From an uncultured Bacillales bacterium (GTDB lineage Bacteria; Bacillota_I; Bacilli_A; RFN20; CAG-826): a DNA stretch of 64,000 nt. The notes under the pieces were generated by a model that searched no databases, was not told the origin of the DNA, and saw nothing but the letters and a program-made list of their open reading frames with translations. The stretch lies in NCBI GenBank assembly GCA_946409515.1, contig CAMJWS010000001.1, forward strand, positions 1,557 to 65,556. The letters run 5' to 3'. Below are positions 1 through 18,885 of this stretch, one piece after another (position 1 is the stretch's first letter; each line of letters opens with the position of its first letter). Both the position numbers and the translations under genes were made by a program.

Positions 1-127
1 CATGTTCTTTGCAAGTAATACATATCTTTTTATCGCTGCCAGAATAAACGGCTCTTTCATATGAAAACTTATCTCCATAAAGATTCTTAGCTTCTTTGAT
101 AAATGTTTCAGTTGTTTTTCTTTTCAT
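1..127 (-). CDS. N-terminal 42-aa fragment of a homing-endonuclease-like protein; the rest of the gene lies left of the window.
   Basis: The reverse complement of 1-127 reads MKRKTTETFIKEAKNLYGDKFSYERAVYSGSDKKICITCKEHG, with ATG at 125-127 (cat on plus). This N-terminal pattern (FI.KAK..YGDK..Y....Y........I.C..HG) is typical of phage free-standing homing endonucleases. It continues the nuclease gene series on the same strand. Confidence 0.4.
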   Translation of the reverse strand, partial: MKRKTTETFIKEAKNLYGDKFSYERAVYSGSDKKICITCKEH

Positions 128-130
128 ATT

Positions 131-1372
131 CTAATCTACATATTTCCAATGGTAACCGCCAGCCACACTTCTTTTGCCTTTACAACATTTGGTTATACTT
201 GTTGCATCCTTAAGATTAGCAAATCTAGCTGCATCACCCATAGATTCAAAAACCTCGTTCGTTTCAACGCATAACACCATTTTATTTGCTTTGCTTTTTC
301 CTTTATACTTCAAGCCAAGCCTATGAGCTTCAGTATTAATTGCTCGGCTGGTTCTAGAAGGCATATATTTTTTTACATCAGATCCAATTAAAGGATACTT
401 TTCTTTCAATAATTGAATTTCTTTTTTCGAAAATTTATCGGCACGTTTTGTTGTTGGCTTTTTCTCATATGAACTTTTATCTTTTGCAAAGCAAAAATGC
501 AAACCTGCGGTACCATTTTCTTTTCCGTTACAGCATCTTAGAATCTTGCCTGTGTTTGCTCCTGTGCATTCATGAGCTTCATTTGCGTTTTTGTAGACAG
601 CATCGGTTTCAAAACAATAAATTTTTTCATTTCTTGAAAATGACATTTCTGCAGGTTCCCAATTAATAGAATAATCCCTTTCGTAGCACCAAAAAAATCC
701 ATTGGCTTTTCTTTGTTTTCTATTGCAACAAGAAACAATGCTGCCACCACTAAATCCTAAATTATTCACTACTTGAGTTATGCTTTCAAATTTACGAATA
801 ACATTGAAATCATCATCTATTTGTAAAACAGGAGAAACGAGTTTGTTGTCTTTTGGTTTCCAATTAGTTGAGTAATTTTTCTTGTAACACCAAAAGTATC
901 CTTTGCATGAATGCTTTTCTCCTTCACAACATCTTCTAATCTGAGATGCGTTCCCTTCACCTTTGCCAAATTGTCTCGATGCTTCAGCGGTACTTGGGAA
1001 TTCTTTTAAGACACGAAGAGTTGTTTTGTCAATCTGTAAAACAGGATACCCCAAATGTTCTGCCGAATCACCACCAAGAGTCATATTGTATCCGTTAGAA
1101 TTTGGAAACCCTATATATGAATTGTAATGTGAAATCCAAAACACTTCTCTTTTATTAGCCAATTCTTGTGTTGGAATATTATTCTCTATAATTGAACTTT
1201 CAAAACTATCCCATCCATATTTTTTAATAGCTTTTGCAAAAACGGACGAATGGTTATCAGATGTGTAGCCCAATCCTTTTTTCCATCTCAAAGATGGAAG
1301 CTGTTTGGTTTGACCAATATACACTTTCCCATTCTTTTTATTAGTATGTTTGTAGATTAACCATGTTGTCAT
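131..1372 (-). CDS. GIY-YIG family homing-type endonuclease with four C-terminal NUMOD1/IENR1 DNA-binding repeats.
   Basis: The N-terminus (IYKHTNKKNGKVYIGQT...REVFWI...NMTLGG) fits the GIY-YIG catalytic motifs (GIY..YIG, R, E, N). It is followed by four ~45-aa repeats ending in the CC.GK/R....GY.W.Y signature (IRRCCEGEKHSCKGYFWCY; IVSCCNRKQRKANGFFWCY; ILRCCNGKENGTAGLHFCF; ITKCCKGKRSVAGGYHWKY), which characterises intron-encoded-nuclease repeat / NUMOD1 modules as in I-TevI-like enzymes. Confidence 0.75.
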   Translation of the reverse strand: MTTWLIYKHTNKKNGKVYIGQTKQLPSLRWKKGLGYTSDNHSSVFAKAIKKYGWDSFESSIIENNIPTQELANKREVFWISHYNSYIGFPNSNGYNMTLGGDSAEHLGYPVLQIDKTTLRVLKEFPSTAEASRQFGKGEGNASQIRRCCEGEKHSCKGYFWCYKKNYSTNWKPKDNKLVSPVLQIDDDFNVIRKFESITQVVNNLGFSGGSIVSCCNRKQRKANGFFWCYERDYSINWEPAEMSFSRNEKIYCFETDAVYKNANEAHECTGANTGKILRCCNGKENGTAGLHFCFAKDKSSYEKKPTTKRADKFSKKEIQLLKEKYPLIGSDVKKYMPSRTSRAINTEAHRLGLKYKGKSKANKMVLCVETNEVFESMGDAARFANLKDATSITKCCKGKRSVAGGYHWKYVD

Positions 1373-3399
1373 TTTTTAATATTTGGATTTTTAACACTGC
1401 CCTTATAAAAATGTGATTTATATCTGTGCTCCACAATTGTTCCGTCTTCAAATTGCACATCTATATCATCTGCTTTTCTATATGCAATGCATGTCGCAAC
1501 CATTCCGCATTTTTGCATAATAGATACACCGATGCAACTTGCTCTTTTTTTAATAATATCGTATTGACTAATCCTAGGATGTCCTATAACGCCTTTCCTT
1601 AATGAATCAAGTTTCTTGTGTCTAACAATTGTCCCGTCCTCGAATTCAACATCAATATCATCGCTTCTGCGATAGGCAATTATCGTAGCTTTCAAACCAC
1701 AACTCATCATATAAGTTTCAGGTTCAAACGACCTGAACTCTTCTTTTACAATTTTGCTAGATTTTATCTTTGATAAAAGTGTTTCATTTAAAGTAACATT
1801 TTCGTTAATACCAAGTTCGTGAAGTAATATGTTTAAATACCTCTCTAATTCACTTAATAAATTATCATAATCTCCTGCGTTGGAAGTTGATTCTAAACAA
1901 TAGTTGATATGTTTCGGGCCATTATGAATAACACAACCTTTTTCTAGGAAAGTGTAGATTTTACTAATTTCTTTTGCTTTCGAAATTAGCTCAAATTTCA
2001 TAGTACTTTTCTGAGTTTCTTCTGAGTGCCATTTAACACCATCGTATTCAACGCCGACCTTAAGAGATGGAATCCAAATATCTATTTCAAGATTGCTTTT
2101 TGTCGCTGGATTCTTTAACCAATTAGGTCTGTAGTTGTGGTCAACTTTTTTGAAATATTTTTTAAGAAAATAATAGATTATTTGTTCAGGAAGAGAACCA
2201 CTCAAAATGTTAGGATTAGCAATTGAGCCATTAACAAAACAGGATTTTGTTTTATGTTCAACAATAGTTCCGTCCTCAAATTGAATATCAATATCTTCTG
2301 AATTCCTATATTTAATACAAGTTGCATTCATTCCATTATTCATCAGTTTTGTTTCGCCTTCGCATGAATATGGATCATAGTTTGGATTGCTTATTTCACC
2401 TCTTAAAAACGATGCTTTTGTTCTATGTTCTACTATGGTGCCATCCTCAAATTCAACATCAATATCATCGCTTCTTCTATACGAAACACAAACGGCTTTT
2501 TGTCCGTTGAGCATCTTTCTGCTTTCGCCAAGACAAGAGTATGGATCGTAATTGGGATTTTGTAGTGAACCATTTACAAAATAATCTTTTCGAGTATGTT
2601 CAACTACCGTTCCATCTTCAAATTGAACATCAATGTCATCAGTTTTCCTATATCCGATGCAGGTAGCCTTTTGTCCATTATTCATATCAACTGTTTGACC
2701 CAGACAAGATGACATATTGTGATTTTGAATCAAGCCTCTAATAAATTCATATCTATATCTATGTTTAACGATAGTTCCATCTTCAAATTGGACATCGATA
2801 TCTTTGGCTCCACGGTCAATGATGCATGTAGCTTTCATTCCACAATTTTGAAGAATTGTTCTTCCAATACAGCTAAAGCGATTGTAGTTAGGATTTTTAA
2901 TTCCTCCATTAAGAAAAGTGTTCTTTTGTTTATGGTAAACAATTGTTCCATCTTCAAATTGAACGTCTATATCTACGTTTGTACGGTAAGCAATACATTT
3001 TGCTTTTTGACCATTTTTTTGAGTCACTTCAATATTTAATACAGATGCTTTTGTGGATGAATTACATTTAGGGCTAGTAATATTACCTGACTTAAACTTA
3101 TCTATTGCTCTATGTTCAACGATTGTTCCATCTTCAAACTGGACATCTATATCATAGTAACCGCGATAAGCGATAATTGTTGCTACTTGGCCATTAAACA
3201 TTTTGTTGCTTTTGCCAATCCAAAAATTAGGATTTTTAACTTCTCCTTTTAAAAATTGGTATTTTGTTGTTTTTACAATAGTTCCATCTTCAAACTGGAC
3301 ATCAATGTCTTGTGGTTTTCTATAAGCAACACAAACGGCGTATTGCCCATTATTCATCAACCTTTTGTCTCCAACGTTAACAATCTTTTCGTTCAACAT
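1369..3399 (-). CDS. Vsr-like (PD-(D/E)XK, DUF559-type) endonuclease domain embedded in nine novel ~43-aa tandem repeats (seven N-terminal, two C-terminal).
   Basis: The central segment NYRPNWLKNPATKSNLEIDIWIPSLKVGVEYDGVKWHSEE matches the Vsr/DUF559 core (E.D.(Y/W)IP.L..(A/G)(I/V)EYDG..WH). Nine copies of NGQKATCIAYRxxDDIDVQFEDGTIVEHxxKxxFxxGxIxNPNY flank it; the repeat is not recognised as any known family. The start overlaps the GIY-YIG gene stop by 4 nt (ATGA), consistent with co-transcription. Confidence 0.6.
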   Translation of the reverse strand: MLNEKIVNVGDKRLMNNGQYAVCVAYRKPQDIDVQFEDGTIVKTTKYQFLKGEVKNPNFWIGKSNKMFNGQVATIIAYRGYYDIDVQFEDGTIVEHRAIDKFKSGNITSPKCNSSTKASVLNIEVTQKNGQKAKCIAYRTNVDIDVQFEDGTIVYHKQKNTFLNGGIKNPNYNRFSCIGRTILQNCGMKATCIIDRGAKDIDVQFEDGTIVKHRYRYEFIRGLIQNHNMSSCLGQTVDMNNGQKATCIGYRKTDDIDVQFEDGTVVEHTRKDYFVNGSLQNPNYDPYSCLGESRKMLNGQKAVCVSYRRSDDIDVEFEDGTIVEHRTKASFLRGEISNPNYDPYSCEGETKLMNNGMNATCIKYRNSEDIDIQFEDGTIVEHKTKSCFVNGSIANPNILSGSLPEQIIYYFLKKYFKKVDHNYRPNWLKNPATKSNLEIDIWIPSLKVGVEYDGVKWHSEETQKSTMKFELISKAKEISKIYTFLEKGCVIHNGPKHINYCLESTSNAGDYDNLLSELERYLNILLHELGINENVTLNETLLSKIKSSKIVKEEFRSFEPETYMMSCGLKATIIAYRRSDDIDVEFEDGTIVRHKKLDSLRKGVIGHPRISQYDIIKKRASCIGVSIMQKCGMVATCIAYRKADDIDVQFEDGTIVEHRYKSHFYKGSVKNPNIKK
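1378..3351 (-). repeat. In-frame ~126-129-bp tandem DNA repeats (nine copies) encoding the 43-aa protein repeat; the array is interrupted by the nuclease-domain coding segment (~2210-2430).
   Basis: A recurring nucleotide motif on the plus strand (...atcaatatcatcgcttct...gttccatcttcaaattgaacatcaatatc...) at ~126-bp spacing corresponds to DIDVQFEDGTIV codons. Confidence 0.6.
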
Positions 3400-3536
3400 A
3401 AAAATATTCTAACACGACATTTCTAAAGAAAAAATGGACAAAAAGCCCATTTTCGAGTCCCACCTGTTATGCCAAAATAGTGTCCATCCCCTCTAATTTC
3501 TTAAAAGTGATACACACTAAGTTGGGAAAGTCGAGT

Positions 3537-4250
3537 TTAGCCTTTTTTAAAAATGTCAGGAGTAACTTCGATGTAACGGTGTTCGTCTTTAACACCTTTT
3601 TCGCCCCAATGGAATAAGTACATGTCCATAAATAAAGCACTTTCACGACCCAAATATTGGATTTGGTCACATAAAGTACATATGGTTGCGTACTTATATT
3701 CTTTTGCCATTAAGACTTCATCATAAAAGAATGCATTGAAATCAGCTAATAATGAATTAATTACTGAATCCCATTGAACGAAGTCTAAATCAATTATTGA
3801 TGCTCTATGCTCAATTAATTCCAAAAGGTAAATGACATTGCAAGTGCGTTTATCGAAGTTCTTTATATTTAAATATATAAAATGATGTTTTCCGACAGTT
3901 TGAGTGCCTTTTCGGATTCGATTGGTATAAATCACTATCTTGCCATCGTGATAAGGCGTGATTTTGAATTTGTTATACATATCGTATCCAACTACAACAC
4001 CATGACCGTTATTGGTATACCAGTCAACTAGCTTGTCACCACTACCAGTTCTATCGTTAGGGTCTGCCACGATTAAATAGACACCGTGTGCTTTTCTAAC
4101 GAGAACGCCTTCTTCTTCTAATCTTTTGAGGATTTTGTAGAAAGTTTTAGGCTTACAGGCAGGAAAATGATCCACTAATTCCCTGTGAATATCGAAAACA
4201 CCGCCCTTATTTTGCAGGCAATACTCACGAATTGTTTTAGTATAATTCAT
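3537..4250 (-). CDS. AbiEi-like winged-HTH protein (AbiEi_4 N-terminal domain plus uncharacterised C-terminal domain).
   Basis: The N-terminus (KGGVFDIHRELVDHF...KTFYKILKRLEEEGVLVRKAHGVYLI) follows the AbiEi antitoxin N-domain pattern (G.F...EL........Y..L..L...G.L.R...GVY). No AbiEii nucleotidyltransferase partner is adjacent. Confidence 0.4.
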   Translation of the reverse strand: MNYTKTIREYCLQNKGGVFDIHRELVDHFPACKPKTFYKILKRLEEEGVLVRKAHGVYLIVADPNDRTGSGDKLVDWYTNNGHGVVVGYDMYNKFKITPYHDGKIVIYTNRIRKGTQTVGKHHFIYLNIKNFDKRTCNVIYLLELIEHRASIIDLDFVQWDSVINSLLADFNAFFYDEVLMAKEYKYATICTLCDQIQYLGRESALFMDMYLFHWGEKGVKDEHRYIEVTPDIFKKG

Positions 4251-4371
4251 TAAATGCTTACTCCTTTCTGATTGTCCAAGACGACTTTCACATAAAAATT
4301 ACCGCACTATTTTATTTTTGTCAGCGCTTTTTTTAAATTAATCCGGCATTGCCTATTTTTATAAATAAAAA

Positions 4372-4411
4372 CGACATCCTGTATATTCTACAAAATGTCG
4401 ACTTTTTGTGA
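4372..4411 (-). terminator. Rho-independent terminator downstream of tRNA-fMet.
   Basis: Inverted repeat cgacat...atgtcg. On the minus strand it is followed by TTTTTATTT. Confidence 0.45.
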
Positions 4412-4412
4412 T

Positions 4413-4488
4413 TGGTTGCGGAGGCAGGATTTGAACACTGCGACCTCCAGGTTATGGGCCTGACGAGCTACCACTGCTCTACTCCGCG
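4413..4488 (-). tRNA. tRNA-Met (anticodon CAT), initiator-like.
   Basis: The minus-strand read CGCGGAGTAGAGCAGTGGTAGCTCGTCAGGCCCATAACCTGGAGGTCGCAGTGTTCAAATCCTGCCTCCGCAACCA is near-identical in architecture to E. coli/B. subtilis tRNA-fMet. It has the C1·A72 mismatch, a TTCAAAT T-loop and an encoded CCA. The anticodon loop reads CCCATAA, with C rather than U at position 33. Confidence 0.8.
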
Positions 4489-4519
4489 ATCTCGCCCGGA
4501 GTTTAGTCCAGGCAATTGA

Positions 4520-4696
4520 TTACTTGCGATTTTTACGACGAGCGTTTTCGCTTTTCACTTTTCTCTTAAGAGATTTCTTTAAGAAAAATTCTCTCTTACG
4601 GGCTTCTTGGATAGTGCCAGCTTTATTAACTTGTCTTTTGAATCTACGAAGAGCATCATCTAATGTTTCGTTTTCACGAACTGAAGTCTTTGGCAT
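4520..4696 (-). CDS. rpsU: 30S ribosomal protein S21 (bS21).
   Basis: 58 aa: [58 protein letters not shown], with a GGAGG RBS 8 nt upstream. It falls below the 60-aa cutoff of the ORF track. Confidence 0.9.
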
Positions 4697-4771
4697 GTCT
4701 ATTCACCTCCTTGAAGCTTTTCGCAACGTGTCTATTATTACAAAGTAGTCTAACTATTGCAAGTATTATTA

Positions 4772-5410
4772 TTAAATAATTTTCGCACCACTGGATGTGC
4801 CGATGCGGTTAGCACCCGCTTCAACCATGGCAATAAGGTCTTCGTGTGTACGAACACCACCACTGGCTTTAACGCCCATTTCTGGACCAACAGTTTCTCT
4901 CATGAGTTTCACTGCTTCAACAGTGGCACCACCAGTTGAGAAGCCTGTACTTGTTTTAACAAAGTCAGCGCCAGCTTCTTTAGCGGCTTTACAAGCACGA
5001 ACGATTTCATCGTTACTTAATAAGCATGTTTCAATAATGACTTTTAAGATGATATTGTGTCCAACGGCTTGTTTGATTTCTCTGATTTCTTCTCTGACAT
5101 AATCATCATGGCCAGCTTTTAACATACCGACATTGATAACCATGTCAACCTCATCAGCGCCCTCCTTAACAGTGAGAACTGCTTCTTCCACTTTAGTTTT
5201 GGTTAAGTTCATACCAAGAGGGAAACCAATAACGGTGCAGACTTTAACATCACTATCTTCTAAGCACTTCGCGGCTAATGGGACATAAGCAGGATTAACA
5301 CAAACTGACATAAAGTCAAATTGTTTTGCTTCTTCACAGAGTTTAACAATTTGTTCTGGGGAAGCGTCTTGTTTTAATAAAGTATGATCAATAAGTTTAT
5401 TGTATTGCAT
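4772..5410 (-). CDS. deoC: Deoxyribose-phosphate aldolase.
   Basis: Full-length match to the DeoC pattern ([42 protein letters not shown]). Confidence 0.9.
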
Positions 5411-6885: not shown

Positions 6886-9800
6886 TTAGTTTTGATAAGG
6901 AATTGTGAATCTAGTTATATAAACCAGATAATCGGAAGCGGCTCCAAAACGAGCCTTAATGGCGCTGACTGATGCTGAATCTTCATCGCCTTCGCAATAA
7001 ACTGTTTTTGCTGCTGGAGTACCACCGATAGCAGATACACCAACAGTTACAATAGTATCAGGTAAGTAAATAGTTGAAAGAGAAGAACAATAGCCAAAAG
7101 CCCATGTGCCAATGGTAGTTACGCCCTTAGGAATTAAAATGGATTTTAAAGACTGGCAACGATAGAACGCATAATCACCAACTGTTGTCACGCCAGTCTT
7201 TGGAAGAGTAATGTTCACGATATTTGCGCAACCATCGAATGCATGAGCAGCAATATCACCACCACCAAGAATTGTGACATCAGTTAAATTTTCTGGGATA
7301 AAGTATGGTTGCGTACTGTATGTGGAAGCGCCAAAGATGGAACCAAAGTGACTACCAGCAATACCAACATTTGTGCCAATAAATGGAAGAACGACTTTTT
7401 CCACATTTCTGCAACCATCATATGCGCCAAAGCCAATAGAAGTGACACTAGTTGGAAGTGCAATTGAACGGAAGGATGTACAGTTTATGAAAGCTTGTTC
7501 ACCAATGAAAGCGACACCATTAGGAATAACGACGTCTTCTAATTGAGAACATCCATAGAAAGATCTACTTCCAATTGAGGTTACACTATTTGGAATCGTA
7601 ATGGAGCTTAAGGATGTACAATTTCCGAAAGCTAATTCGCCAATAGAAGTGATACCTTCAGAAAGTACAATCTCTTCGACATTTGAACAGTAATAGAATG
7701 TTCTATCAGCAATGTATTCACCACCACTAATGACAATGGTCTTAAGTGTTAGAGGAATGCTACTATTGAATAAATTGCTAATAGTAACACTACGTGTGTC
7801 CGTTTCGTTGGCATATTTATATGTTGAAGGTAGTTTAAGATATTCTAATGACGGACAACCAGCTAGTGATTTATCTAACCATTCGATGTTACCGGCAAAT
7901 GTCACTGATTTAACATTATTACAGCCTTCAAATGCCCATTCATATAGTTCATAGTTATCGCCTGTGATGATGATTGTCTCAAGACTTGTTGGAATCTTTG
8001 GAGTGTTATCCTTTGTATAATCAACATCAAAGATATAATTCATACGGCAATATGTTGTATTTGAAGCTGGGTTAGAATCATTGATTGAATAGTTTCTTCT
8101 GCCAACAAATGGAATTGATAGAGTTTCAAGACTTGTACAGCCATCTAACATGCCTTGGCCCATTTCAGTAACGGAATTTGGAACTTCAACGCTAACTAAT
8201 GAAGAACAGCCTAAGAACGCTGCACTACCAATAGAGGTAACAGTGTTAGGAATAGCAATTGCCTCTAAGGAAGAACAATTCTTAAATGCGGCAGTTGGAA
8301 TTGCAGTAAATGATACATTATTTGGAAGTAGAGCATACTTAAGTGAAGTACAACCTTCAAATGCACTATAGCCAATTGAGGTAACGCTATCTGGGATAAC
8401 GATTGATTCTAATGAAGAACAATTGAGGAATGCATTATAAGGAATTGCAGTAAGTGTAGATGGAAGTACAACGTTCTTTAAACCGCCGCAATCTTTGAAA
8501 GCATTATATCCAATGGTCTCAAGTGTTGATGATAGTTTAGCGTATTCTAATGAAGTACAACCTTCAAATGCACTATAGCCAATTGAGGTAACGCTATCTG
8601 GGATAACGATTGATTCTAATGAGACACAACCATAGAACGCATTGTTATCAATAGCGGTAATACCTTGTGGTAAGGCAACTGTTTCTAAGGATGCACAGTT
8701 CCAGAATGTTCGATAATTAATCGTCGACATTGAGCCTGTAAAGATGATTGTTTTAACACTTCCACATCCTTCAAAAGTATTTTTATAGATTTGATCATCA
8801 CCAACAACAGTGATGCTTTCAAGAACAGGAGAAACTCCAGTCCAGAACAAATCTTTGAAAACTTTGTCTGAAAGAGCTTTAGAAGGAACAGTCATATGTT
8901 TGAGATTTGTGCAACCATCAAATGTCCAAATGCTAATATTGGCGTTTGGACAGTCAATGACTACTGATTCAAGCATTGAACAGTTTCTAAAAGAATTTTG
9001 GACAATATTGGATTCAGAAGCGTTTGTAATGATAACGTTTCTTAATGAAGCAGGGATGAAATAATAATAATCATTTTGACCATAGGTGAATTGGTAAACA
9101 CCATCACCTTCATATGTTGCTCCGCTTTCATTATTATGTACATCAAAGCCAAAGATGAAGCCAAACATTCTTTCATTTGTATAGTTGCTACTATTGAAGC
9201 GACCAACGTGTGGAATTGATAATGTTTCTAAAGATGAACATCCTTTAAACGCTCCTTCTCTAATTTGAATAACACTGTTTGGAATATAAGCACTCTTCAA
9301 AGAAGTACAATTTAAGAAGGTATCTGTGGAGATAATCTCAACACCATTTGGAACAACAATAGATTCTAACGCTGTGCATCCACTGAATGTTTCGCTACCA
9401 AGATTAGTAAGAGTCGCTGGAAGAACGATGTTCTTAAGAGCAGTACAATCTTTAAAAGCTTGATTATTGATTTCGGTCACGCCAGATGGAAGAACAATAC
9501 TTTCCATTGAAATACAATTCATGAATGAACCAGCACCAATGGTTGTAATAGGTTCTGGAATTACTACGCCTTTTAAAGAAATACAGTTTGCAAACATACT
9601 TCCGTTAAGAGCGGTAAAGGAAGCATTATTTGGAAGCATGACATAAGTCAATGAACTACAGCCATTGAAAACACCCCACATGCTAGTAACGCTGTTTGGA
9701 ATAACGACACTCACTAATGAGGTACAATTCATGAATGCGCCGTTTCCGATTGTAACCACACTATTTGGTATAGAAATATTTGTTAAAGCGCTGCAATTTG

Positions 9801-12800
9801 CAAAAGCACTACCATTGATACTGGTAACTGTATTTGGAATTGATACAGTTGTTAACGAAGTACAAGAATCAAATGCACATAAACCAATACTTTGAACATT
9901 ATTTGGGAAAGCAACCGATTGTAAAGAGAGACATCCATAGAAGCAATATCTTGGCAAATCAGTAAATTTGTTCATAAATGAAACCGAAACTACTTGATCG
10001 CAATAAGCAAAGTTACCTCCATAAGAATTAAGAGTAATGTTTTCACCAATGACAATATTCTTTACTCTTACATAGCCAAATGCGGAATGATAAATCGTGC
10101 CATTACCGATTAAATAGAATGTATCCAAGTAAGTTGTTGTTGTTTGACTGCCATGGTTGCCTAGAACTATATTCATTGAATTAAAGCTGTATAAGGTATC
10201 AGGCATACCTGGTTCATAAGTTCCACCAAAATATGGAGCGGATAAATATTTTAATGAGTCGCAGTTTCTAAGTGCATCTTCGCCAATAGAAGTGACGCTA
10301 GCAGGGATAACTAGAGATACTATACTAGAACAGCCTTCAAAACCACTTTCGCCAATAGAAGTGACTGATGTTGGAATAGAAACACTAACAAGGCCAGAAC
10401 AGGCTTCGAAAGCGGAATCGCCAATAGAAGTGACACCATGTGGAATGTTCAAAGCGCTTAAAGAAGCACATCCTTCGAAAGCACTATCGCCAATTGTCTT
10501 TAAACTTGTTGGCATACTGATGTTTCTTAACGCTGGGCAATTCGAAAAAGCGGAATCTTCTATTGCAGTGATGCTATCAGGTAAAACAATAGTTCTTAAC
10601 GATGTGAAACCTTCGAAAGTACCTTGAGAAATCTTTGTTAAATTACCTTCAATGATAATGTTTTCAACATGCTTTGCACTATAGCCATGACCTGGTGCTA
10701 CAATCTCAGTAACATTCTTACCAACAATGATGTTTTTAGCATTGTAATTGCACTTCAAAGCACCACTACCTGTAATGTATAAATATTCTAAATGATATAG
10801 ACGTTCCCAAGGTGTTGGTGAGGTTCCAGATTCATAGAGATAAGTAAATGCACTACAATCAATAGGAATAGATAATGACTTGAGCGCCATACAATAACTA
10901 TTAAATTCATAACCAATAGATGTAACACTAGTTGGAATGACTAAAGTTTCAAGCGAATCACAGCTATAGAAAGCACGTTCACCAACTGTAAGAAGGCCAT
11001 TTGGTAAAAGCACCTCTTTTATATTATCAGCATCTTCAAAAGCACTATTGCCTATTTCTTTTGTCCCACCAATAATTTTGACAGATTTAATATTTTGGCA
11101 TCCAGCGAATGCTTTTTCACCGATTTTTTGATCACCAGTAATAACGATATTAGCTAATGTTGATGGTAGTAATCCATTTTGCACATCAGCGCTATTGGCG
11201 TCAAAGAAGTATCCAATGTAACCGTTATTGCCACTACCATCACCTAAGTATGGAACAACTAAAGTTTCAAGAGGTATTGCTTCTTTAGAATAATCGTATA
11301 AATAAACATCATAATCGGTAAAGTTGGTTTCATATGGATTGTTAAATTTTACCCAAAGATTTTTTCCGGCATACCAATCACCAGTATCGCCAATAAGTTC
11401 GCCATAGCCTGCTTCTTCAACAGTTTCTTCACTTAAGTAGAAGCTGTAATTATATAGTTCATCGTACCACGCATCCCATTCTTCCCAATAAGCATAAATG
11501 ACATACCATACTTGTTCAGGATCGTAATTATACTCAGTAGATGAATCATTTTCGTAAGGATTTATAGTAAGAATAAAGTCGTATTGACGTGGGTCGCCTT
11601 GAAGATCATAAGGGCTTGGATAATCATAGCCGCTCCACACGTGGATAAGTAATCTTACACTATCTTTAGGAACTATTTGCCATTTAACACCACCATCTAA
11701 AGAAGCTAAGATGCCTTGGCCAATTGATGTGACACTATTAGGAATAATAAAGGTTTTTAATCCGATGCAGCCTCTAAAGGCATAATCACCAATTGATAAG
11801 AGGCCTTCGTTAAGCGAAACACTGGTGAGGTTTGAACACTTTTCAAAAGCGCTTTCACCAATTGATTTAACATTTTCAGGTACCGCAAATGTTTTTAAAG
11901 CTAAGCAGCTATCAAACGCATGATTACCAATAGAAGCAATACTATCGTTAAGGGCAATGATTTCAATGCTTGAACAATATGCAAAAGCATAATCACCTAA
12001 GGTTTCACCACCGACGATAACAGCTTTCAAAGTCTCTGGCACTGTATAAATGTTGTCTTCAGGATCATTTGAACCAAATAGAGTTCCAATACTTCCTGCT
12101 AAGGAAGGCAAGACTAAAGATTGAATATTAGAAGTACTATCAAGCTTATAGAGTTCGGTTTCATAAGTATCTTCGTTGTAGTAGTAATAATAATCGCCTA
12201 TAGAATAATCATTAATAGATGGGAAATCTCCATAGCCCATATAGTTATCAATATCACTGTAGTCACTATATTCTTTAATCTTAGTCCAGGTGTCATCGCT
12301 AGTCTTACGATAAAGAGTATAAGTAGTATCAGAATCGAGCCACCAGTCACCAACATCACCATCATATTCAGATGGTTCGGAGGATGATTCAGTAATGCTA
12401 TCCGCTAAAAGAACCCACTGAATTTTTCCAGTAAGGATGCCAAAGCCAATATTAGTGACTGATTCTGGAATAGCAAGCGAAGTAAAGGATACGCATTTTT
12501 CAAAAGCATAATCACCAATTGTGGTAACACTATTTGGAATATTAATGCCTTTCAAGCTTTCACAACCACTGAACGCTCTCGCGCCGATAGCTGTTAATGT
12601 ATCTGGAAGGATGACTGTTTCAATGTGTGAGCAGTTAGCGAATGCACCACTCTTTAATTCAGTCACATTAGAAAGAACAACTGTCTTTAATGATGCAGGA
12701 GCTAAATTATTCCATGAACCATGGCTATGTTTGCTACCAGCAGCGATAAAGCCATAACCAAATGAATTAAATGCATCGGCGATATTGCCTTGTGGTAAGC

Positions 12801-15800
12801 CCCATCTATCGCTACTATTCTTAATCCAGAATGTACCAGTAGTTACGTTGATATAATAGTCTCTTTGAGCGGTTTCATATTGGCTTCTATTAGATGTGCC
12901 ATAATCACAAGAAGCAACACTGCCGTCTTCGTTGGTTAAAATGAGTTGACTAATCCATTCGCCATTAATCTTTCTATAGACTGTAGAAATATTAGCATCA
13001 AGATATAAGTCATTATCGTTACCGATACTATTGGATGGTTTTTGACCACTAGATAATTTGCCAGCGTAAACCCTACTACCAATAACTGTAGCGCTACCAC
13101 CGACGAACGGAAGAGTAATGCTATTAAGATTAGATCTAAATTCGACTAATAAATCACCATCATCTGAATTGATAAATAATTTGCCAGATTCAATAGAAGT
13201 TGGGGAAATGACATCATAGAATAATTCGAAACCGACAATTGTGTCTCTTAATTCCCACTTATTGCCTTCTTCATAACGAACCCAGATTTCACCATAGTGT
13301 TCAGCATCAGTGAATACGATAATATCACCAATTTCACCATCAACTGGTAAATCGTGAGTGCTTGTTACTTGAATAATAGCGTATTCGGTTCTTTCTGGAG
13401 AATATTTATCCCATAAGTTACCTTTTCTTGTTAAACCAGTAGAGAAAGCACCTCTACCAATATCTTTAACAGAATCTGGAATGATAATTGATTCTAGAGA
13501 ATCACAACCAGTGAAAGCAAATTCACTGATGTTTTCTAAACCTTCGTTTAAAACGATATATTTAAGTGAAGTACAACCAAAGAACGCTCTTGTGCCTAAA
13601 TCTTTTAAGTTAGAAGGCATCGCAATAGCTTGTAATGATGTACAGCCTTCAAATGTTTGAACTTCAATTTTTTCTAAGTTTTCTGAAAGAGTGAGATATT
13701 TAAGTGAAATACAGCCTTCAAAAGCCATTCTACCAACAGAAGTAACACTATTTGGCATTACAAATGATTCTAAACCTGTGCAGTGATAGAAAGCTTGGAT
13801 ACCAATTGATTTTAAGTTAGCAGGTAAATTGATAGACTTTAATGATGTACAACCTCTAAATGCTAAATCACCAATCTCTGTAATTGTTTCCGCTAAGGCA
13901 ACAATTTTCAATGATTTGAGATCAGCAAACATTTTATTATTAACTTTAGTAATACCATGTCCTAAATAAACATTTTCCAAAGCATCACAATCTAGGAATA
14001 AGTTATCACCAAATTGTTTATCCACGCCGTCTTGGAAGACGATTGATTTAAGATGGCTATTTTCGCGGAATGCTCTGTCACCAATAAATGTAACAGAAGA
14101 TGGAATTACGAATGTTGAGCAACCTGTGTTCGCTAAAGCACCCGCTTCAATTCTTGTTAATCCTTGAGGAAGGTTGAGTTCAGTTAATTGTGTTGTTTGG
14201 TAGAAGCAAGCTCTTCCTAATACTTTTAGTGTGCTTGGAAGTTTAACTATAGTTAATGTGGTACAGAAATGGAATGCTTCTTGGCCGATTTTTGTAACCC
14301 CTTCAGGAATGACTACACTGATAATTTGGTTGCTAGCAAAAGCGAATTCAGGAATTGTGTCCCTATTAGCACCATTACCACCAGTTAAGATGATAGACTT
14401 AACATTACTATGGCCTTCAAAGAGATAATCTAATGAACCATCAGTTCCAGAAAGAGAATCTCTACTCTTGCCTATGAATGGTAATGTCAATTCAATAACA
14501 TCAGAATCTTTAAATACGCCTTTGCCTAAGTATTCCACACTATTAGGAACAACAAAGGATGTCATTTCGGTATCACCGAAAGCATAATCACTAATTTCTC
14601 TAACGTTATTTGGTAAGACGATATTTTCAGCATCACAACCATAGAAAGCATAGGAAGGAATACAGTCTTTATTATCACCATTAGCGCCAGTCAAAATAAT
14701 AGTGTCTAAATGACTTGGAATTCTGCTACTTTGGTTTTCTTTATTATTAGCGCCAAAAATATAGCCTAAGTAGTAATTGGATTCAGGAGCAGGATTGGCT
14801 AAATTCAAAATACTGCCCGCTCCCAACCAAGAATCACCGTAATAAACATAGATCTCACCAGTTTCATAGTTAAAGAAACGGCCACTACTTGGTAATTCTG
14901 TGCCAATTACAACGGCACCACTAGCAAGAATGTTAAGCGTTTCATCATTCTTATCTTCAGTCAAATCGAGCCATTGACCATTAGTAAACTGCCAATAATG
15001 CTTTGTAGCAAGATCAAAATATGTTGTGGTTGTTGGATTGACTGTATTTGGTTCACCGTTACCATAAGAATAAGTTAATGGAGCAATGTAACCAGAATCT
15101 GGACCAATATATGGAAGTGTGATTGATTTCAAATCATCACATTCTGCAAATGCACCAAAGCCAATTGATGATGGATTACCACTGATAATGATTGTTTCAA
15201 TACCATCGCATCCATTCATTGCATTAGCATCAATTGCATAATCGCCTGTAATTGTTACTGTCTTAAGAGATGATGGAAGAGCGGAATCGTTGTCGTCATA
15301 GCTATCACCGCCGAAGACAAATGATAAATATGTAGCATCAGTTACATAATTTGAAAGAACAGTAGCCATTTGTGGATTATCAACAAGATTCATATAGAAA
15401 TTCCATGTATCATTTTGGTATCCATAGAGATTGCCTGTATCGATATCCATCACAACATCACCGTTATCGGCTGAGCCTGTTGGAGCACCATTAACAAGCA
15501 TGCTTGGTGGAAGATTCATTTCTGTTTTATTCCATACACCATTCGCTTTAGCCCAGATATAACCTGATTCTGTATCTAAATATACATTATTTAAAGGATT
15601 TGTTGTGGTTGGTTCACCTGCGCCATAGCAGTAAGCCCAGCTAACTGAAGCCTCTGCGGAACCACCGATAAATGGAGCGGAATATGATTCTAAGGAATCA
15701 CAATCTTCAAAGGCGCCTTTACCAATTGATTTAATAGTGCTTGGCAAAATAATACCTTTTAAAGAAGAACAGTTAGCAAAAGCACCAGCGCCAATTGCTT

Positions 15801-18800
15801 CTAAGCCTTGAGTTGGGGCTACTTTTCTAAATGTAGAGATACCTGGATTAGCGGCACCTTCTTCAATATAGACATAAACAACGTTAGAACAATCTTTAAA
15901 AGCGTCTTGGCCGATTGATTTGACGTTACTTGGAATAACAACTGATGTTAAACCAGTACAGCCTTCAAACGCGCTGTTTCCGATTGATTTAACGGTATGT
16001 GGAAGAGTGAATGAAGTGATTCCTGTTTGATCTTTGAATACATCATCACCAATACCAATAATTAATTGATCGTTATAGAATTCTGGGATGACGATATCGC
16101 CACTTGTGATAGAGCAAGCTGTAATGATGCCATCTTCGACAACGAATTGTCCCCATCTAGCGGTTAATGTTATGTCTTTTGTCACAACATCTTTAGAGAA
16201 GTCCCAACGTGTGCCCTCACTTGTGTACCAACCTTGGAAGAAATAATCATCTTTAGTTGGGGCTGTTGGATTAACAATGGTAAAGCCTTCTAAAGCTTCT
16301 TCATATGAAGCAACTGCAGTACCACCATCACTATCAAATGTGACTGTATATTTATTAGGGGAATAATGTAAATTACCTTCTGGATTCCAGACTAAATTAC
16401 CTTCACCATCATCAGTTAAAACATAGTAGTTCCATGTATCTAAATCGATATATGAATCGCCTTCAATACCTGCAACAGCAGCAAGAGTTTCATCTTGTGG
16501 AGTGACTGGATCATCTTCAACCGCACGTGGGTCACGGTGTCCTGTCCTCACAGATGTACCGTCTTTACCATTAGTGACTGTGAATGTATCAACATGTGGA
16601 TTTGCGGTTGTGCTATCACTATAAGTGATTTCATAAACATCGATTAAATCGTTAGTTTCTTTTAAAGTTACGCTGACAATGGAAACACCATCTTGACCAG
16701 CATCACCTTTAAATGAGCCTTTATCAGTCCAACCGTCATCGGCTTTAACATAGAGTTTCCATGTTTCGACGTCGATATAGTTATCTCCGACATTAGCTAA
16801 GGTTTCATTTGTTGGTGCACCTGTACCAACAATAATCTTATTTCCATCTTGGCCATTAGTGACTGTAAATGTTGATGTTGTGGTATCAGAGTATGTAATT
16901 GTGTAGGTATCCACTAAGCCTTCAGTGCCTGTTTTGACAACACTTGAAATGGAGACACCATTAGTACCGTTTTGGCCTGCAAAGTTACCTTTATGGACCC
17001 AAACACCATTTTCTTTCGCGTAGTAGTCCCATGTTGTGGTATTGATATATGAATCGCCATTATTACCTAAAGTATTTTCTGGTGCAGTTGTGCCATATCT
17101 TAAAGAAGCACCAATTGCACCACCACCAGCTGGTTCACCCCAGCCAGTATCAGTCATTGTGTAATAATTACCTGTATCTAAATCGATATATGTGTCACCA
17201 ACATTACCTGGAACGTTACCAGTTGTTGGATCACCATGACCAACGTTAACAGAAGCACCTTGTGCGCCTGCTGCGCCATCATCACCTTTAATATTACCAG
17301 CGAGGTTCCATGTACCATTTTCTTTAACATAGAAATCCCAGTTAGCTAAGTTGATGTAGGAATCGCCATTTTTACCTGTTGTAGCAGCTGGTTCACCATT
17401 ACCAGTTAAAACTGATGTAGCGGCAGCGCCTTCACCAATCTTTTCCCAGCCGTTAGTTTCATCGTATGTATAGAGATAGCCTGTATCTAAGTCAATATAG
17501 GTATCACCTTGTTTACCTTCGACACTATTTGTTGTTGGATCACCATGGTTAAGGCTGACAGAAGCACCAGCAGGACCTTGTGGACCTGTAGCGTTAACGC
17601 CAGTATCGGTTTCGCCGACATACCAGTGACCATTTGCACCAATATGTGGAATGGCAAAATTACTTGTGGAGTCTGGTGTGCCCCATTCACCGTTATCGCC
17701 CATGTGATACACGTCGCCTGTACTTAAATCAATATAAGTATCGCCCGCGCTACCTGGAACGTTACCTGTGGTTGGATCACCACTACCAGTGAGGATGGAA
17801 GTACCATCTTGACCAGCTTGACCTTGTGGGCCAGTAGCGGCAACACCGGTATCGGTATCACCAATAAACCAGTTACCATTAGCACCGATATGAGGTAAAG
17901 CAAAATTACTATTGGCTTCTGGAGCGCCCCATTCGCCGTTATCGCCCATGTGATAGATATCACCTGTGCTTAAATCAATATATGTATCGCCAGGATTACC
18001 TGTAGCGCCACTTGTGGTTGGATCACCATTGCCCGCACAAACGGAAGTACCATTATCACCAGCTTGACCAGCAATATTGCCAATCTTGACCCAAGCACCA
18101 CTATCCATGACATAGTAGTCCCAGTTCAATAAGTTAATATATGAATCACCATTTTGTCCTAAGTCAGCGGCAGGGACACCTTCACCAGTGTGTACACTAT
18201 AGCCAGCTTGACCAGTAGGGCCTTGTGGACCTTGAGCGTGAGTGCCTGTATCAACACCATCGACAAACCAGTTACCATTTTCACCAACTGTGATTTCTGG
18301 TGTACGGCCATCTGTGCCTGGAATGCCTTGACCTTGGGCACCGTTTTCACCATTTGTGACCAAGAATGTTGATGTTGTATTGTCAGTGTATGTAATTGTA
18401 TAAACGTCTATTAGGCCTTGAGATTCGGTCTTTTCAACGGAAACAATACCACGGCCTTCTGGACCTTGTGGGCCTTCTGGACCTTGAGGGCCTTGTGGGC
18501 CAACAGCATCTAAATCTGTGACTGTACCGTTAATGACCCATTTACCGTTTTCGATGGTAATTGTTGGAGTAACACCATCCGCGCCAGGGAAACCTTGAGC
18601 GCCAGGTTGACCATCCGAACCATTTGTAACGATGAAGATCGAACTTGTTCCATCTGTGTAATAGATTGTATATTCATCGATTAGACCATATGTGTTAGTC
18701 TTTTCGACTTTATCAATTGATTTTAGAGTCTGGCCCTCTTGACCTTCTCCTCCTGGTATTTGTGAGTTTGGAAGATCTTTTTTAAGAGCATGAACCGCAA

Positions 18801-18885
18801 TTGCTGCGCCCGCTATCGAAAGAGTGAGGGTTGTTGTCGTCACAATAATAGCGATTGTTCTGAATAGTGATGAATGTTTTGCCAT
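6886..18885 (-). CDS. Giant (3999-aa) cell-surface protein: N-terminal signal anchor, collagen-like Gly-X-Y segments alternating with beta-rich modules, a Listeria-Bacteroides repeat, and a very long array of BspA-type leucine-rich repeats.
   Basis: N-terminus MAKHSSLFRTIAIIVTTTTLTLSIAGAAIA. Collagen-like runs include GPQGPQGPEGPQGPEG, GAQGFPGADG and GPQGPTGQAG. Repeated GDTYIDLSTGDIYHMGDNGEWG modules are present. YTVTFDSDGGTAVAS...FQGWYTSEGTRWDFSKDVVTKDITLTARW fits the Flg_new/Listeria-Bacteroides repeat. More than 50 LRR_5-type units occur (e.g. VVIPEGVTKIGQEAFHFCTTLTIVKLPSTLKVLGRACF). Confidence 0.85.
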   Translation of the reverse strand: MAKHSSLFRTIAIIVTTTTLTLSIAGAAIAVHALKKDLPNSQIPGGEGQEGQTLKSIDKVEKTNTYGLIDEYTIYYTDGTSSIFIVTNGSDGQPGAQGFPGADGVTPTITIENGKWVINGTVTDLDAVGPQGPQGPEGPQGPEGRGIVSVEKTESQGLIDVYTITYTDNTTSTFLVTNGENGAQGQGIPGTDGRTPEITVGENGNWFVDGVDTGTHAQGPQGPTGQAGYSVHTGEGVPAADLGQNGDSYINLLNWDYYVMDSGAWVKIGNIAGQAGDNGTSVCAGNGDPTTSGATGNPGDTYIDLSTGDIYHMGDNGEWGAPEANSNFALPHIGANGNWFIGDTDTGVAATGPQGQAGQDGTSILTGSGDPTTGNVPGSAGDTYIDLSTGDVYHMGDNGEWGTPDSTSNFAIPHIGANGHWYVGETDTGVNATGPQGPAGASVSLNHGDPTTNSVEGKQGDTYIDLDTGYLYTYDETNGWEKIGEGAAATSVLTGNGEPAATTGKNGDSYINLANWDFYVKENGTWNLAGNIKGDDGAAGAQGASVNVGHGDPTTGNVPGNVGDTYIDLDTGNYYTMTDTGWGEPAGGGAIGASLRYGTTAPENTLGNNGDSYINTTTWDYYAKENGVWVHKGNFAGQNGTNGVSISSVVKTGTEGLVDTYTITYSDTTTSTFTVTNGQDGNKIIVGTGAPTNETLANVGDNYIDVETWKLYVKADDGWTDKGSFKGDAGQDGVSIVSVTLKETNDLIDVYEITYSDSTTANPHVDTFTVTNGKDGTSVRTGHRDPRAVEDDPVTPQDETLAAVAGIEGDSYIDLDTWNYYVLTDDGEGNLVWNPEGNLHYSPNKYTVTFDSDGGTAVASYEEALEGFTIVNPTAPTKDDYFFQGWYTSEGTRWDFSKDVVTKDITLTARWGQFVVEDGIITACSITSGDIVIPEFYNDQLIIGIGDDVFKDQTGITSFTLPHTVKSIGNSAFEGCTGLTSVVIPSNVKSIGQDAFKDCSNVVYVYIEEGAANPGISTFRKVAPTQGLEAIGAGAFANCSSLKGIILPSTIKSIGKGAFEDCDSLESYSAPFIGGSAEASVSWAYCYGAGEPTTTNPLNNVYLDTESGYIWAKANGVWNKTEMNLPPSMLVNGAPTGSADNGDVVMDIDTGNLYGYQNDTWNFYMNLVDNPQMATVLSNYVTDATYLSFVFGGDSYDDNDSALPSSLKTVTITGDYAIDANAMNGCDGIETIIISGNPSSIGFGAFAECDDLKSITLPYIGPDSGYIAPLTYSYGNGEPNTVNPTTTTYFDLATKHYWQFTNGQWLDLTEDKNDETLNILASGAVVIGTELPSSGRFFNYETGEIYVYYGDSWLGAGSILNLANPAPESNYYLGYIFGANNKENQSSRIPSHLDTIILTGANGDNKDCIPSYAFYGCDAENIVLPNNVREISDYAFGDTEMTSFVVPNSVEYLGKGVFKDSDVIELTLPFIGKSRDSLSGTDGSLDYLFEGHSNVKSIILTGGNGANRDTIPEFAFASNQIISVVIPEGVTKIGQEAFHFCTTLTIVKLPSTLKVLGRACFYQTTQLTELNLPQGLTRIEAGALANTGCSTFVIPSSVTFIGDRAFRENSHLKSIVFQDGVDKQFGDNLFLDCDALENVYLGHGITKVNNKMFADLKSLKIVALAETITEIGDLAFRGCTSLKSINLPANLKSIGIQAFYHCTGLESFVMPNSVTSVGRMAFEGCISLKYLTLSENLEKIEVQTFEGCTSLQAIAMPSNLKDLGTRAFFGCTSLKYIVLNEGLENISEFAFTGCDSLESIIIPDSVKDIGRGAFSTGLTRKGNLWDKYSPERTEYAIIQVTSTHDLPVDGEIGDIIVFTDAEHYGEIWVRYEEGNKWELRDTIVGFELFYDVISPTSIESGKLFINSDDGDLLVEFRSNLNSITLPFVGGSATVIGSRVYAGKLSSGQKPSNSIGNDNDLYLDANISTVYRKINGEWISQLILTNEDGSVASCDYGTSNRSQYETAQRDYYINVTTGTFWIKNSSDRWGLPQGNIADAFNSFGYGFIAAGSKHSHGSWNNLAPASLKTVVLSNVTELKSGAFANCSHIETVILPDTLTAIGARAFSGCESLKGINIPNSVTTIGDYAFEKCVSFTSLAIPESVTNIGFGILTGKIQWVLLADSITESSSEPSEYDGDVGDWWLDSDTTYTLYRKTSDDTWTKIKEYSDYSDIDNYMGYGDFPSINDYSIGDYYYYYNEDTYETELYKLDSTSNIQSLVLPSLAGSIGTLFGSNDPEDNIYTVPETLKAVIVGGETLGDYAFAYCSSIEIIALNDSIASIGNHAFDSCLALKTFAVPENVKSIGESAFEKCSNLTSVSLNEGLLSIGDYAFRGCIGLKTFIIPNSVTSIGQGILASLDGGVKWQIVPKDSVRLLIHVWSGYDYPSPYDLQGDPRQYDFILTINPYENDSSTEYNYDPEQVWYVIYAYWEEWDAWYDELYNYSFYLSEETVEEAGYGELIGDTGDWYAGKNLWVKFNNPYETNFTDYDVYLYDYSKEAIPLETLVVPYLGDGSGNNGYIGYFFDANSADVQNGLLPSTLANIVITGDQKIGEKAFAGCQNIKSVKIIGGTKEIGNSAFEDADNIKEVLLPNGLLTVGERAFYSCDSLETLVIPTSVTSIGYEFNSYCMALKSLSIPIDCSAFTYLYESGTSPTPWERLYHLEYLYITGSGALKCNYNAKNIIVGKNVTEIVAPGHGYSAKHVENIIIEGNLTKISQGTFEGFTSLRTIVLPDSITAIEDSAFSNCPALRNISMPTSLKTIGDSAFEGCASLSALNIPHGVTSIGDSAFEACSGLVSVSIPTSVTSIGESGFEGCSSIVSLVIPASVTSIGEDALRNCDSLKYLSAPYFGGTYEPGMPDTLYSFNSMNIVLGNHGSQTTTTYLDTFYLIGNGTIYHSAFGYVRVKNIVIGENITLNSYGGNFAYCDQVVSVSFMNKFTDLPRYCFYGCLSLQSVAFPNNVQSIGLCAFDSCTSLTTVSIPNTVTSINGSAFANCSALTNISIPNSVVTIGNGAFMNCTSLVSVVIPNSVTSMWGVFNGCSSLTYVMLPNNASFTALNGSMFANCISLKGVVIPEPITTIGAGSFMNCISMESIVLPSGVTEINNQAFKDCTALKNIVLPATLTNLGSETFSGCTALESIVVPNGVEIISTDTFLNCTSLKSAYIPNSVIQIREGAFKGCSSLETLSIPHVGRFNSSNYTNERMFGFIFGFDVHNNESGATYEGDGVYQFTYGQNDYYYFIPASLRNVIITNASESNIVQNSFRNCSMLESVVIDCPNANISIWTFDGCTNLKHMTVPSKALSDKVFKDLFWTGVSPVLESITVVGDDQIYKNTFEGCGSVKTIIFTGSMSTINYRTFWNCASLETVALPQGITAIDNNAFYGCVSLESIVIPDSVTSIGYSAFEGCTSLEYAKLSSTLETIGYNAFKDCGGLKNVVLPSTLTAIPYNAFLNCSSLESIVIPDSVTSIGYSAFEGCTSLKYALLPNNVSFTAIPTAAFKNCSSLEAIAIPNTVTSIGSAAFLGCSSLVSVEVPNSVTEMGQGMLDGCTSLETLSIPFVGRRNYSINDSNPASNTTYCRMNYIFDVDYTKDNTPKIPTSLETIIITGDNYELYEWAFEGCNNVKSVTFAGNIEWLDKSLAGCPSLEYLKLPSTYKYANETDTRSVTISNLFNSSIPLTLKTIVISGGEYIADRTFYYCSNVEEIVLSEGITSIGELAFGNCTSLSSITIPNSVTSIGSRSFYGCSQLEDVVIPNGVAFIGEQAFINCTSFRSIALPTSVTSIGFGAYDGCRNVEKVVLPFIGTNVGIAGSHFGSIFGASTYSTQPYFIPENLTDVTILGGGDIAAHAFDGCANIVNITLPKTGVTTVGDYAFYRCQSLKSILIPKGVTTIGTWAFGYCSSLSTIYLPDTIVTVGVSAIGGTPAAKTVYCEGDEDSASVSAIKARFGAASDYLVYITRFTIPYQN
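17400..18300 (-). repeat. Near-identical ~240-bp tandem coding repeats inside the giant gene.
   Basis: For example 17650-17760 and 17890-18000 share the ...ccccattc(a/g)ccgttatcgcccatgtgata(c/g)a...cttaaatcaatata(a/t)gtatcgcc blocks. Confidence 0.6.

Follow-up and report, generated by a model that had tools for sequence, protein, structure and literature searches.

Two overlapping nuclease genes of different catalytic type raise the question of whether their products work as an enzyme pair or whether the genes are held together by linkage alone. Both lie at the beginning of a stretch of 64,000 nucleotides from an uncultured Bacillales bacterium (contig CAMJWS010000001.1, positions 1,557 to 65,556; this whole stretch is called the window in the following). 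The downstream gene encodes a 413-aa GIY-YIG protein with the features of a homing endonuclease, the upstream gene a 676-aa protein with small repeats around a Vsr-like nuclease core (Table 1). An initial annotation had taken the overlap of the two genes as translational coupling, regarded such an arrangement as unusual for homing endonucleases, and proposed that the pair might act on both strands or on different targets, as in some defence nuclease pairs. From our analysis it is rather likely that the two genes are linked passengers and not cooperating enzymes, the GIY-YIG homing-endonuclease gene (HEG) borrowing the expression of the gene in front of it.

Table 1. Coordinates of the features discussed in the text
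Feature	Position in window	Strand	Basis or remark
Free-standing GIY-YIG homing-endonuclease gene, 413 aa	131-1372	-	open reading frame, ATG start, TAG stop; family matches
GIY-YIG catalytic domain, aa 1-110	1043-1372	-	alignment to I-TevI catalytic domain 1ln0/1mk0
DNA-binding region, four NUMOD-like repeats	134-1048	-	repeats at nt 872-1048, 671-835, 479-628, 134-283
ATGA start/stop overlap	1369-1372	-	ATG of GIY-YIG gene and TGA of upstream gene
Upstream 676-aa gene, 7 + 2 small beta-barrel repeats around Vsr/DUF559-like PD-(D/E)XK core	1369-3399	-	
Putative recently exchanged segment over the junction (repeats 8-9 and GIY-YIG catalytic domain)	1100-1700, borders approximate	-	sliding identity
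1-nt deletion splitting the GIY-YIG gene in L001-L003	about 1042	-	single G missing, codon 110, border of catalytic domain and linker
Third nuclease gene, 5' end, runs off the window	1-127	-	starts 3 nt after the GIY-YIG stop
AbiEi-like gene, 237 aa	3537-4250	-	PADLOC AbiEi, 1.2e-25
tRNA, anticodon CAU, C1-A72 mismatch (initiator-like)	4416-4488	-	Rfam 50.7 bits; not reported by ARAGORN

The GIY-YIG gene, its partner and their junction

The GIY-YIG domain of the 413-aa protein was recognised by Pfam (PF01541, 1.4e-6) and could be aligned to the catalytic domain of I-TevI at 8e-6. Thereby Y7, Y18, R29, E76 and N96 correspond to Y6, Y17, R27, E75 and N90 of I-TevI, and the GIY-YIG catalytic set (Tyr, Tyr, Arg, Glu, Asn) is complete. 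The protein matches TIGR01453, a model named 'group I intron endonuclease', at 1.4e-20 (74.3 bits, cutoff 56). Its modular C-terminal region is covered by PF22083 (I-HmuI_NUMOD-like, 4.4e-13) and PF07453 (NUMOD1, 3.9e-5) and contains four NUMOD-like or IENR1-like repeats (aa 109-167, 180-234, 249-298 and 364-413), all with the pattern I..CC.G...G..W.Y and the last one preceded by a helical linker (aa 300-362). These family matches, the I-TevI alignment and the four aligned repeats bear out the domain call and the repeat count given initially. Homing-endonuclease families of PHROG matched as well, and the only PADLOC models to do so were those named 'HEase'. An exact sequence look-up showed that this protein is not on record.

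An RNA-family search of window positions 1-5000 (E <= 1) detected no intron family, nor any other RNA element at the gene, so that the gene is not intron-borne and, like those of the Seg proteins, free-standing. With the Seg proteins of T-even phages and with I-TevI and I-BmoI it has the order of its parts in common: the catalytic domain, of I-TevI type, comes first, and a series of NUMOD-type DNA-binding modules comes after it. It differs from this group in its context, which is not phage but chromosome-like (deoC, rpsU, tRNA), and from I-TevI in that it is not found in a group I intron and encodes a 413-aa protein with four NUMOD-like repeats. The DNA-binding part of I-TevI consists of a single zinc finger, a minor-groove helix and a helix-turn-helix (HTH) motif. 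We therefore regard the gene at 131-1372, with good but not full confidence, as an ordinary free-standing I-TevI-type GIY-YIG homing endonuclease gene, that is, a selfish mobile gene whose product is predicted to cleave DNA.

The upstream protein is composed of seven repeats of 52-57 aa (DIDVQFEDGTIV), a core of about 160 aa (aa ~400-560) and two further repeats, giving nine in total. Searches of this protein against Pfam and NCBIfam gave nothing above threshold, phmmer found no match among PDB sequences at E <= 1, and no PADLOC model matched; Tudor_3, CBM_26 and uL14 were dropped as annotations since these matches were sub-threshold and driven by the repeats. For repeat 7 together with the core, AlphaFold gave a confident model (pLDDT 89). 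In Foldseek comparisons the modelled core appears weakly similar to PD-(D/E)XK nucleases including AbaSI/PvuRts1I, and the modelled repeat to Tudor/SH3-like small barrels. The best PDB sequence for a profile of the core was 3r3p, the catalytic domain of I-Bth0305I (weak, E = 0.12), and half of the relatives of the protein match the Pfam families MTES_1575, DUF559 or DUF2726. In the core, columns reading E..D, EYDG, H and K are invariant across 16-29 relatives and are candidate catalytic positions, their correspondence to D51, H69 and D97 of Vsr being tentative at most. Of the label 'Vsr-like repeat nuclease' used in the initial annotation the repeats are thus plainly seen; the Vsr part, with 3r3p at E = 0.12, is moderately supported, a reasonable but unproven designation.

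The protein resembles the EDxHD or Vsr-like homing endonucleases I-Bth0305I and phage Hef (PMC3239194, PMC2677866) in that a small, putatively Vsr-type core is joined to modular DNA-binding repeats in a free-standing gene, bearing in mind that the 3r3p match is weak. In contrast to these enzymes its core is central and not C-terminal, and it is flanked on both sides by nine Tudor/SH3-like repeats (up to 13 in relatives) instead of NUMOD2/HTH modules. The gene is under constraint (dN/dS, the ratio of non-synonymous to synonymous divergence, 0.04-0.09 against relatives). With modular DNA-binding repeats, a Vsr-type core and its occurrence as a single-gene insert in unrelated contexts, the upstream gene is, as far as its sequence indicates, itself homing-endonuclease-like.

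The repeat defines a family without a name that comprises about 2,300 clusters at 50% identity, has 1-13 copies per protein and is found in gut and rumen Bacillota and Bacteroidota. The nearest named relatives of the whole protein (47% identity) come from metagenome-assembled genomes of Clostridium sp. CAG:307 and of an Acholeplasmatales bacterium. Family members occur with or without the nuclease core, as tandem genes (L022, L025; here and below, L numbers denote loci used for comparison) or fused to NUMOD-like modules (L015, L017, L018), and the same core is found with DUF4379 zinc ribbons replacing the repeats (L043, 1520-3313). In Bacillus phage Evoli, gp207 (L136, 2471-3214), annotated as HNH endonuclease and equipped with a C-terminal AP2 domain, carries a single repeat at its N-terminus with 54% identity to aa 9-58, which supports the repeat as a nuclease-associated DNA-binding module. 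A scan of viral contigs with the family alignment matched only the core (aa ~400-470) and yielded neither repeat-bearing relatives nor the pair. The Vsr-type core, recognisable by G[IV]EYDGxxxH, reaches 4-5 copies per contig in certain large phage contigs, e.g. in IMGVR_UViG_3300037484_000374 (L058, L075, L090, L094, L101) and IMGVR_UViG_3300025162_000019 (L070, L084, L108, L124). Several core copies on one jumbo-phage contig are typical of HEG proliferation. A question apart from the pair is whether each repeat reads a few base pairs; if so, the family would be usable as a modular DNA-recognition scaffold.

The overlap of the two genes was confirmed in the window sequence. The plus strand reads tcat at 1369-1372, i.e. 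ATGA on the coding strand, with the ATG at 1372-1370 and the TGA at 1371-1369, and a run of six A residues (A6) directly precedes it. The same ATGA overlap is present in every other contig bearing the pair (L001, L002, L003, L004, L133 and L135), and the junction sequence ...AATATTAAAAAATGACAACATGG is identical in the window, L001, L004, L133 and L135. Other overlaps in the window measure 4 nt (24561-24564) and 1 nt (25274 and 44211). Since 4-nt ATGA overlaps are common and the window has another one, the overlap alone is unremarkable. Neither is it unusual for homing endonucleases, as had been assumed: of the free-standing HEGs of phage T4, seven are cassettes lacking a promoter and 5 of 12 overlap the upstream open reading frame (ORF), mobE for example overlapping nrdA as UAAUGA, an arrangement interpreted as keeping endonuclease levels low (PMC2988022). 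With these T4 genes the GIY-YIG gene described here shares the start/stop overlap with the upstream ORF, the same orientation as its neighbours and, probably, the lack of its own promoter (PMC2988022). It differs from them in its host gene, which codes for a nuclease instead of a conserved housekeeping protein.

In the 25 nt upstream of the GIY-YIG gene there is no Shine-Dalgarno motif. Such a motif is also absent from the upstream 676-aa gene and the third gene, whereas many other genes in the window have motifs of the GGAGG type. No terminator-like site was found between the two genes. A consensus scan for an internal promoter of the GIY-YIG gene gave 22 sites against 19.9 expected from shuffles, from which nothing was concluded. 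The common strand and the missing terminator and Shine-Dalgarno motif make co-expression of both genes likely; the overlap claimed initially stands, and translational coupling itself is a prediction from sequence. The GIY-YIG HEG, which would have neither a promoter nor a ribosome-binding site of its own, begins right at the stop codon of the repeat-Vsr gene in front of it. It would be transcribed on the mRNA of that gene, from the promoter region in front of it, and translated at a low level through termination-reinitiation at AAAAAAUGA.

In front of the upstream gene, the window (3400-3445, minus strand) and L004 (2800-2847) share only ATTTTTTCTTTAGAAAT and a TAGAAT box, which lies 7 nt before the ATG, is kept in L004 and is not accompanied by a Shine-Dalgarno motif. 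This shared stretch suggests a short-leader transcript that is carried along with the mobile unit. The leader of the 676-aa gene (3433-3447) is furthermore complementary to the codons of the 'NGQKA' motif within the gene (2494-2508, 2666-2682 and 2095-2117) over 15-23 nt with 78-93% matches; the stretch coincides in part with a weak hairpin that has a T-run behind it. Such complementarity could be fortuitous, a remnant, or an element for RNA pairing.

Distribution of the pair and divergence across its junction

If the two genes functioned as a unit, their occurrence in other genomes should tell. L001-L003 represent the same locus as the window (97.8% nucleotide identity). L133 and L135 show the orthologous locus in a relative further removed, where identity in the AbiEi-like flank has dropped to about 72%. 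L004 has the pair in unrelated flanks (a MiaB-like gene and AdhE), the homology to the window being limited to the two ORFs. Synteny between L004 and the window was considered and rejected: the flank proteins of L004 have no orthologues in the window, with a 34% identical radical-SAM paralogue as the only similarity, and the contexts were therefore taken as different. The whole pair is 93% identical between L133 and L004, again in different flanks. Homology restricted to two ORFs, together with this value, indicates that the genes are able to move as one piece. Around the two-gene unit no terminal inverted repeats and no transposon-like borders were found. The pair most probably travels together because its members are physically linked, which is then no sign of joint protein action.

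The identical junction is limited to a narrow clade (L004, L133, L135 and L001-L003). Of the remaining upstream-gene alleles the closest, in L005, L134 and L130 (79, 76 and 73% nucleotide identity), are without the GIY-YIG gene. In L005, where McrBC and two Dcm methyltransferases adjoin upstream, homology ends exactly before the GIY-YIG ATG, and L134 and L130 diverge past their own stop codons. The GIY-YIG gene is thus present or absent at one fixed site, comparing these solo alleles with the pair alleles of identical junction. Its relatives at 74, 63, 62 and 60% identity, the four examined, all lack the repeat-Vsr partner; they are flanked by other HEG-like genes, follow a CoiA-type nuclease gene, or stand by themselves. 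Conversely, among 17 repeat-plus-Vsr loci of other species (GTDB species representatives) a single one, L009, has a GIY-YIG neighbour, which is 605 nt away, does not overlap and is 34% identical. Only GIY-YIG relatives with an amino acid identity of 90% or more show the pairing. Conservation of the pair as a unit, the check suggested initially, therefore holds for the L004 context and the orthologous locus of L133/L135, all within one shallow clade; otherwise the two families occur apart.

The divergence between the window and L133 changes along the locus. Sliding identity is 68-80% in the flanking AbiEi-like gene and 67-89% in the first ~1700 nt of the upstream gene (76% overall). At about window position 1700 it jumps abruptly to 91-100% (95% overall) and remains there down to ~1100, i.e. 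over the last ~330 nt of the upstream gene and the catalytic domain, followed by 86-95% in the NUMOD region and no homology past the GIY-YIG stop. The comparison with L004 gave the same picture. Synonymous divergence (dS) from L133 amounts to 1.26 for the AbiEi-like flank and 2.9 for aa 1-398 of the upstream gene, compared to 0.28 for aa 560-676, 0.13 for the GIY-YIG catalytic domain and 0.41 for the NUMOD region; the difference between 5' segment and junction segment is highly significant (Fisher p = 1.4e-32). Against L004, dS is 1.25 for the upstream and 0.31 for the GIY-YIG gene. The catalytic domain is 96-100% identical to those of L004, L133 and L135 (dS 0.11-0.13), the NUMOD region 85-95% to those of L004 and L133 (dS 0.40-0.41, dN/dS 0.12-0.16). 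Upstream genes are mosaic also elsewhere, L004 and L005 being 96% identical in the core and 65-88% outside it.

Because the contrast lies in synonymous sites, the junction segment shares recent ancestry and is not simply under stronger selection. As read from these alignments, the pattern is one of presumptive homing, or of a double-strand break repaired in or close to the junction while the flanks were co-converted, and it is incompatible with simple co-divergence of a two-gene system. Presence/absence polymorphism combined with co-conversion of flanks is likewise a trait of the Seg proteins, I-TevI and I-BmoI. By this comparison, the GIY-YIG gene and about 330 nt of the upstream 3' end have been copied recently between upstream-gene alleles otherwise diverged by 25-30%. 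Such copying makes it probable that homing is directed to the 3' end, or the stop region, of alleles from the same clade that lack the GIY-YIG gene: the GIY-YIG protein would cut these alleles near the stop codon, and repair would copy the gene in.

In L001-L003 the GIY-YIG gene is split into 121 and 212 aa by the deletion listed in Table 1. Beside it, the upstream gene is constrained (99% protein identity, differences nearly all synonymous, dN/dS 0.04), indicating that the partner needs no intact GIY-YIG gene. Degeneration of a HEG after fixation is expected from the life cycle of these genes.

The third nuclease gene and the surroundings of the locus

A third nuclease gene, passed over in the initial annotation, follows 3 nt downstream of the GIY-YIG gene and makes the locus a stack of homing-endonuclease-like genes. 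Its complete counterpart in L001 (6447-7928) encodes a protein of 493 aa in which DUF723/DUF4379/CapR zinc-finger modules recur and which ends in a Vsr-like motif region (LDFYLP...IECQGGQH). The slot is occupied by a different DUF4379-type gene in L133/L135 and is empty in L004. The HEGs of ICP1-like phages with T5orf172, CapR and DUF723 domains (PMC10448857) offer a parallel: they are 'beads on a string' nucleases whose DNA-binding modules recombine and swap, they are found at boundaries of genetic exchange, and the DUF723/DUF4379/CapR modules of the third gene recall them. The nuclease domains and the hosts, which here are bacteria, are different.

What is notable about the locus is that a GIY-YIG HEG rides on a second gene of homing-endonuclease-like type, and that both belong to a stack of three on a bacterial chromosome. 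The former gene probably homes into the latter, as the conversion pattern would suggest. In T4, mobE and I-TevIII are adjacent HEGs of different types, one mobilising the other by trans-homing (PMC2790892). Our locus resembles that case in having two endonuclease genes of different catalytic types side by side, and in the persistence of a defunct neighbour, comparable to the frameshifted GIY-YIG gene in L001-L003 (PMC2790892); unlike there, both genes are free-standing and overlapping. Mobilisation of the pair in trans by either enzyme would be possible.

Directly upstream of the nuclease stack lies the AbiEi-like gene, which is not followed by an AbiEii toxin gene; the stack occupies the slot where AbiEii would be expected. 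The AbiEi-like gene is kept in L001-L003 and L133 and absent from the other pair contexts. It was considered as a conserved third partner and rejected, as it is lacking in L004, L005, L134 and L130. The tRNA gene is located just upstream of it, so that the stack adjoins a tRNA gene. A single ORF of 3,999 aa (6886-18885, minus strand) is found a few kb from the stack.

Alternative explanations and meaning

The cooperating, defence-like pair acting on two strands or two targets, as envisaged initially, would imply that the Vsr-like and the GIY-YIG enzyme are co-expressed in a fixed proportion. The ATGA overlap, the missing Shine-Dalgarno motif, the retention of the unit in two genomic contexts and purifying selection on both genes (dN/dS 0.085 and 0.154) are in agreement with this. 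The families are otherwise found apart, though, pairing being restricted to the GIY-YIG relatives of at least 90% identity. Moreover, the GIY-YIG gene is frameshifted in sister strains next to a still constrained partner, the two genes disagree in their divergence, the breakpoint falling within the upstream one, and no defence model of PADLOC matches the upstream protein. We consider such cooperation very unlikely, and the proposal finds no support in our results. Even less probable is a single dual-nuclease protein arising when the ribosome or the RNA polymerase slips by -1 on the A6 run (AAA AAA UGA read as AAA AUG...). A -1 shift of the P-site Lys-tRNA would indeed enter the GIY-YIG frame at its ATG, the sole in-frame stop (TAA) lies upstream of the A6 run, and the junction is invariant across pair-bearing loci. 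This invariance is accounted for by recent common descent; a downstream stimulatory structure is absent, and the 120 listed homologues include fusions to NUMOD modules only and no repeat-Vsr/GIY-YIG fusion.

Chance adjacency of two decaying relics that are inactive today would fit the broken GIY-YIG gene of L001-L003. It is hard to reconcile with two intact ORFs in the window, dN/dS values of 0.04-0.15, a full set of catalytic residues and an identical junction carried to another locus, and we assign it a very low probability. More weight, although still small, is due to the idea that homing-endonuclease-like nucleases were domesticated as a host anti-phage or anti-plasmid islet, their adjacency then reflecting clustering in defence islands and not homing. 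The AbiEi-like gene directly upstream with its PADLOC match points in this direction, as do the position of L005 after McrBC and two Dcm methyltransferases, of P0124 beside an AlwI-type restriction-modification (R-M) system and of P0126 near reverse transcriptase (RT)/AAA_15 genes, the 'HEase' matches of the GIY-YIG protein, and the strong purifying selection on the upstream gene. Presence or absence at a stop codon, transfer without flanks, a conversion tract and decay by frameshift are, on the other hand, classic traits of selfish HEGs, and the neighbours differ from locus to locus with no recurrent partner gene.

Several observations weigh against two mere passengers of which one homes into the other. 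The NUMOD part is older (dS 0.4) and the tract of highest identity comprises only the catalytic domain and the tail of the upstream gene, so that the last event could have been a short gene conversion between two alleles that each had the GIY-YIG gene beforehand, instead of a new invasion. Every contig with the pair falls into one shallow clade, which implies few independent homing events. In three unrelated forms, namely this pair, L009 and L130 with a different 154-aa GIY-YIG protein, a GIY-YIG-type gene follows a repeat-Vsr gene within ~2 kb. This clustering may go beyond random placement, and some looser functional or ecological link is conceivable; we read it as selfish genes stacking in permissive spots or as HEGs targeting HEGs. 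Several relatives, finally, have defence-island-like surroundings (McrBC, R-M, AbiEi).

The reading of the two genes as linked passengers replaces the tempting one of a two-nuclease system by one that can be tested, with the GIY-less alleles of L005, L134 and L130 as candidate substrates. Knowledge of free-standing HEGs derives mostly from phages. With the locus described here, homing-type gene conversion and head-to-tail stacking of HEG-like genes are recorded in bacterial chromosomes from gut and rumen metagenomes. Going further, we tentatively propose a hyperparasitic homing, a possibility we hold to be somewhat short of even: the GIY-YIG endonuclease may home into the 3' end of a mobile repeat-Vsr gene, and the resulting two- or three-gene stack may be moved to new positions in the chromosome by whichever nuclease is active (trans-homing). 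If true, one selfish element would spread through the population of a second one, and this would account for the head-to-tail pile-up of homing-endonuclease-like genes in the genomes of gut Bacillota.

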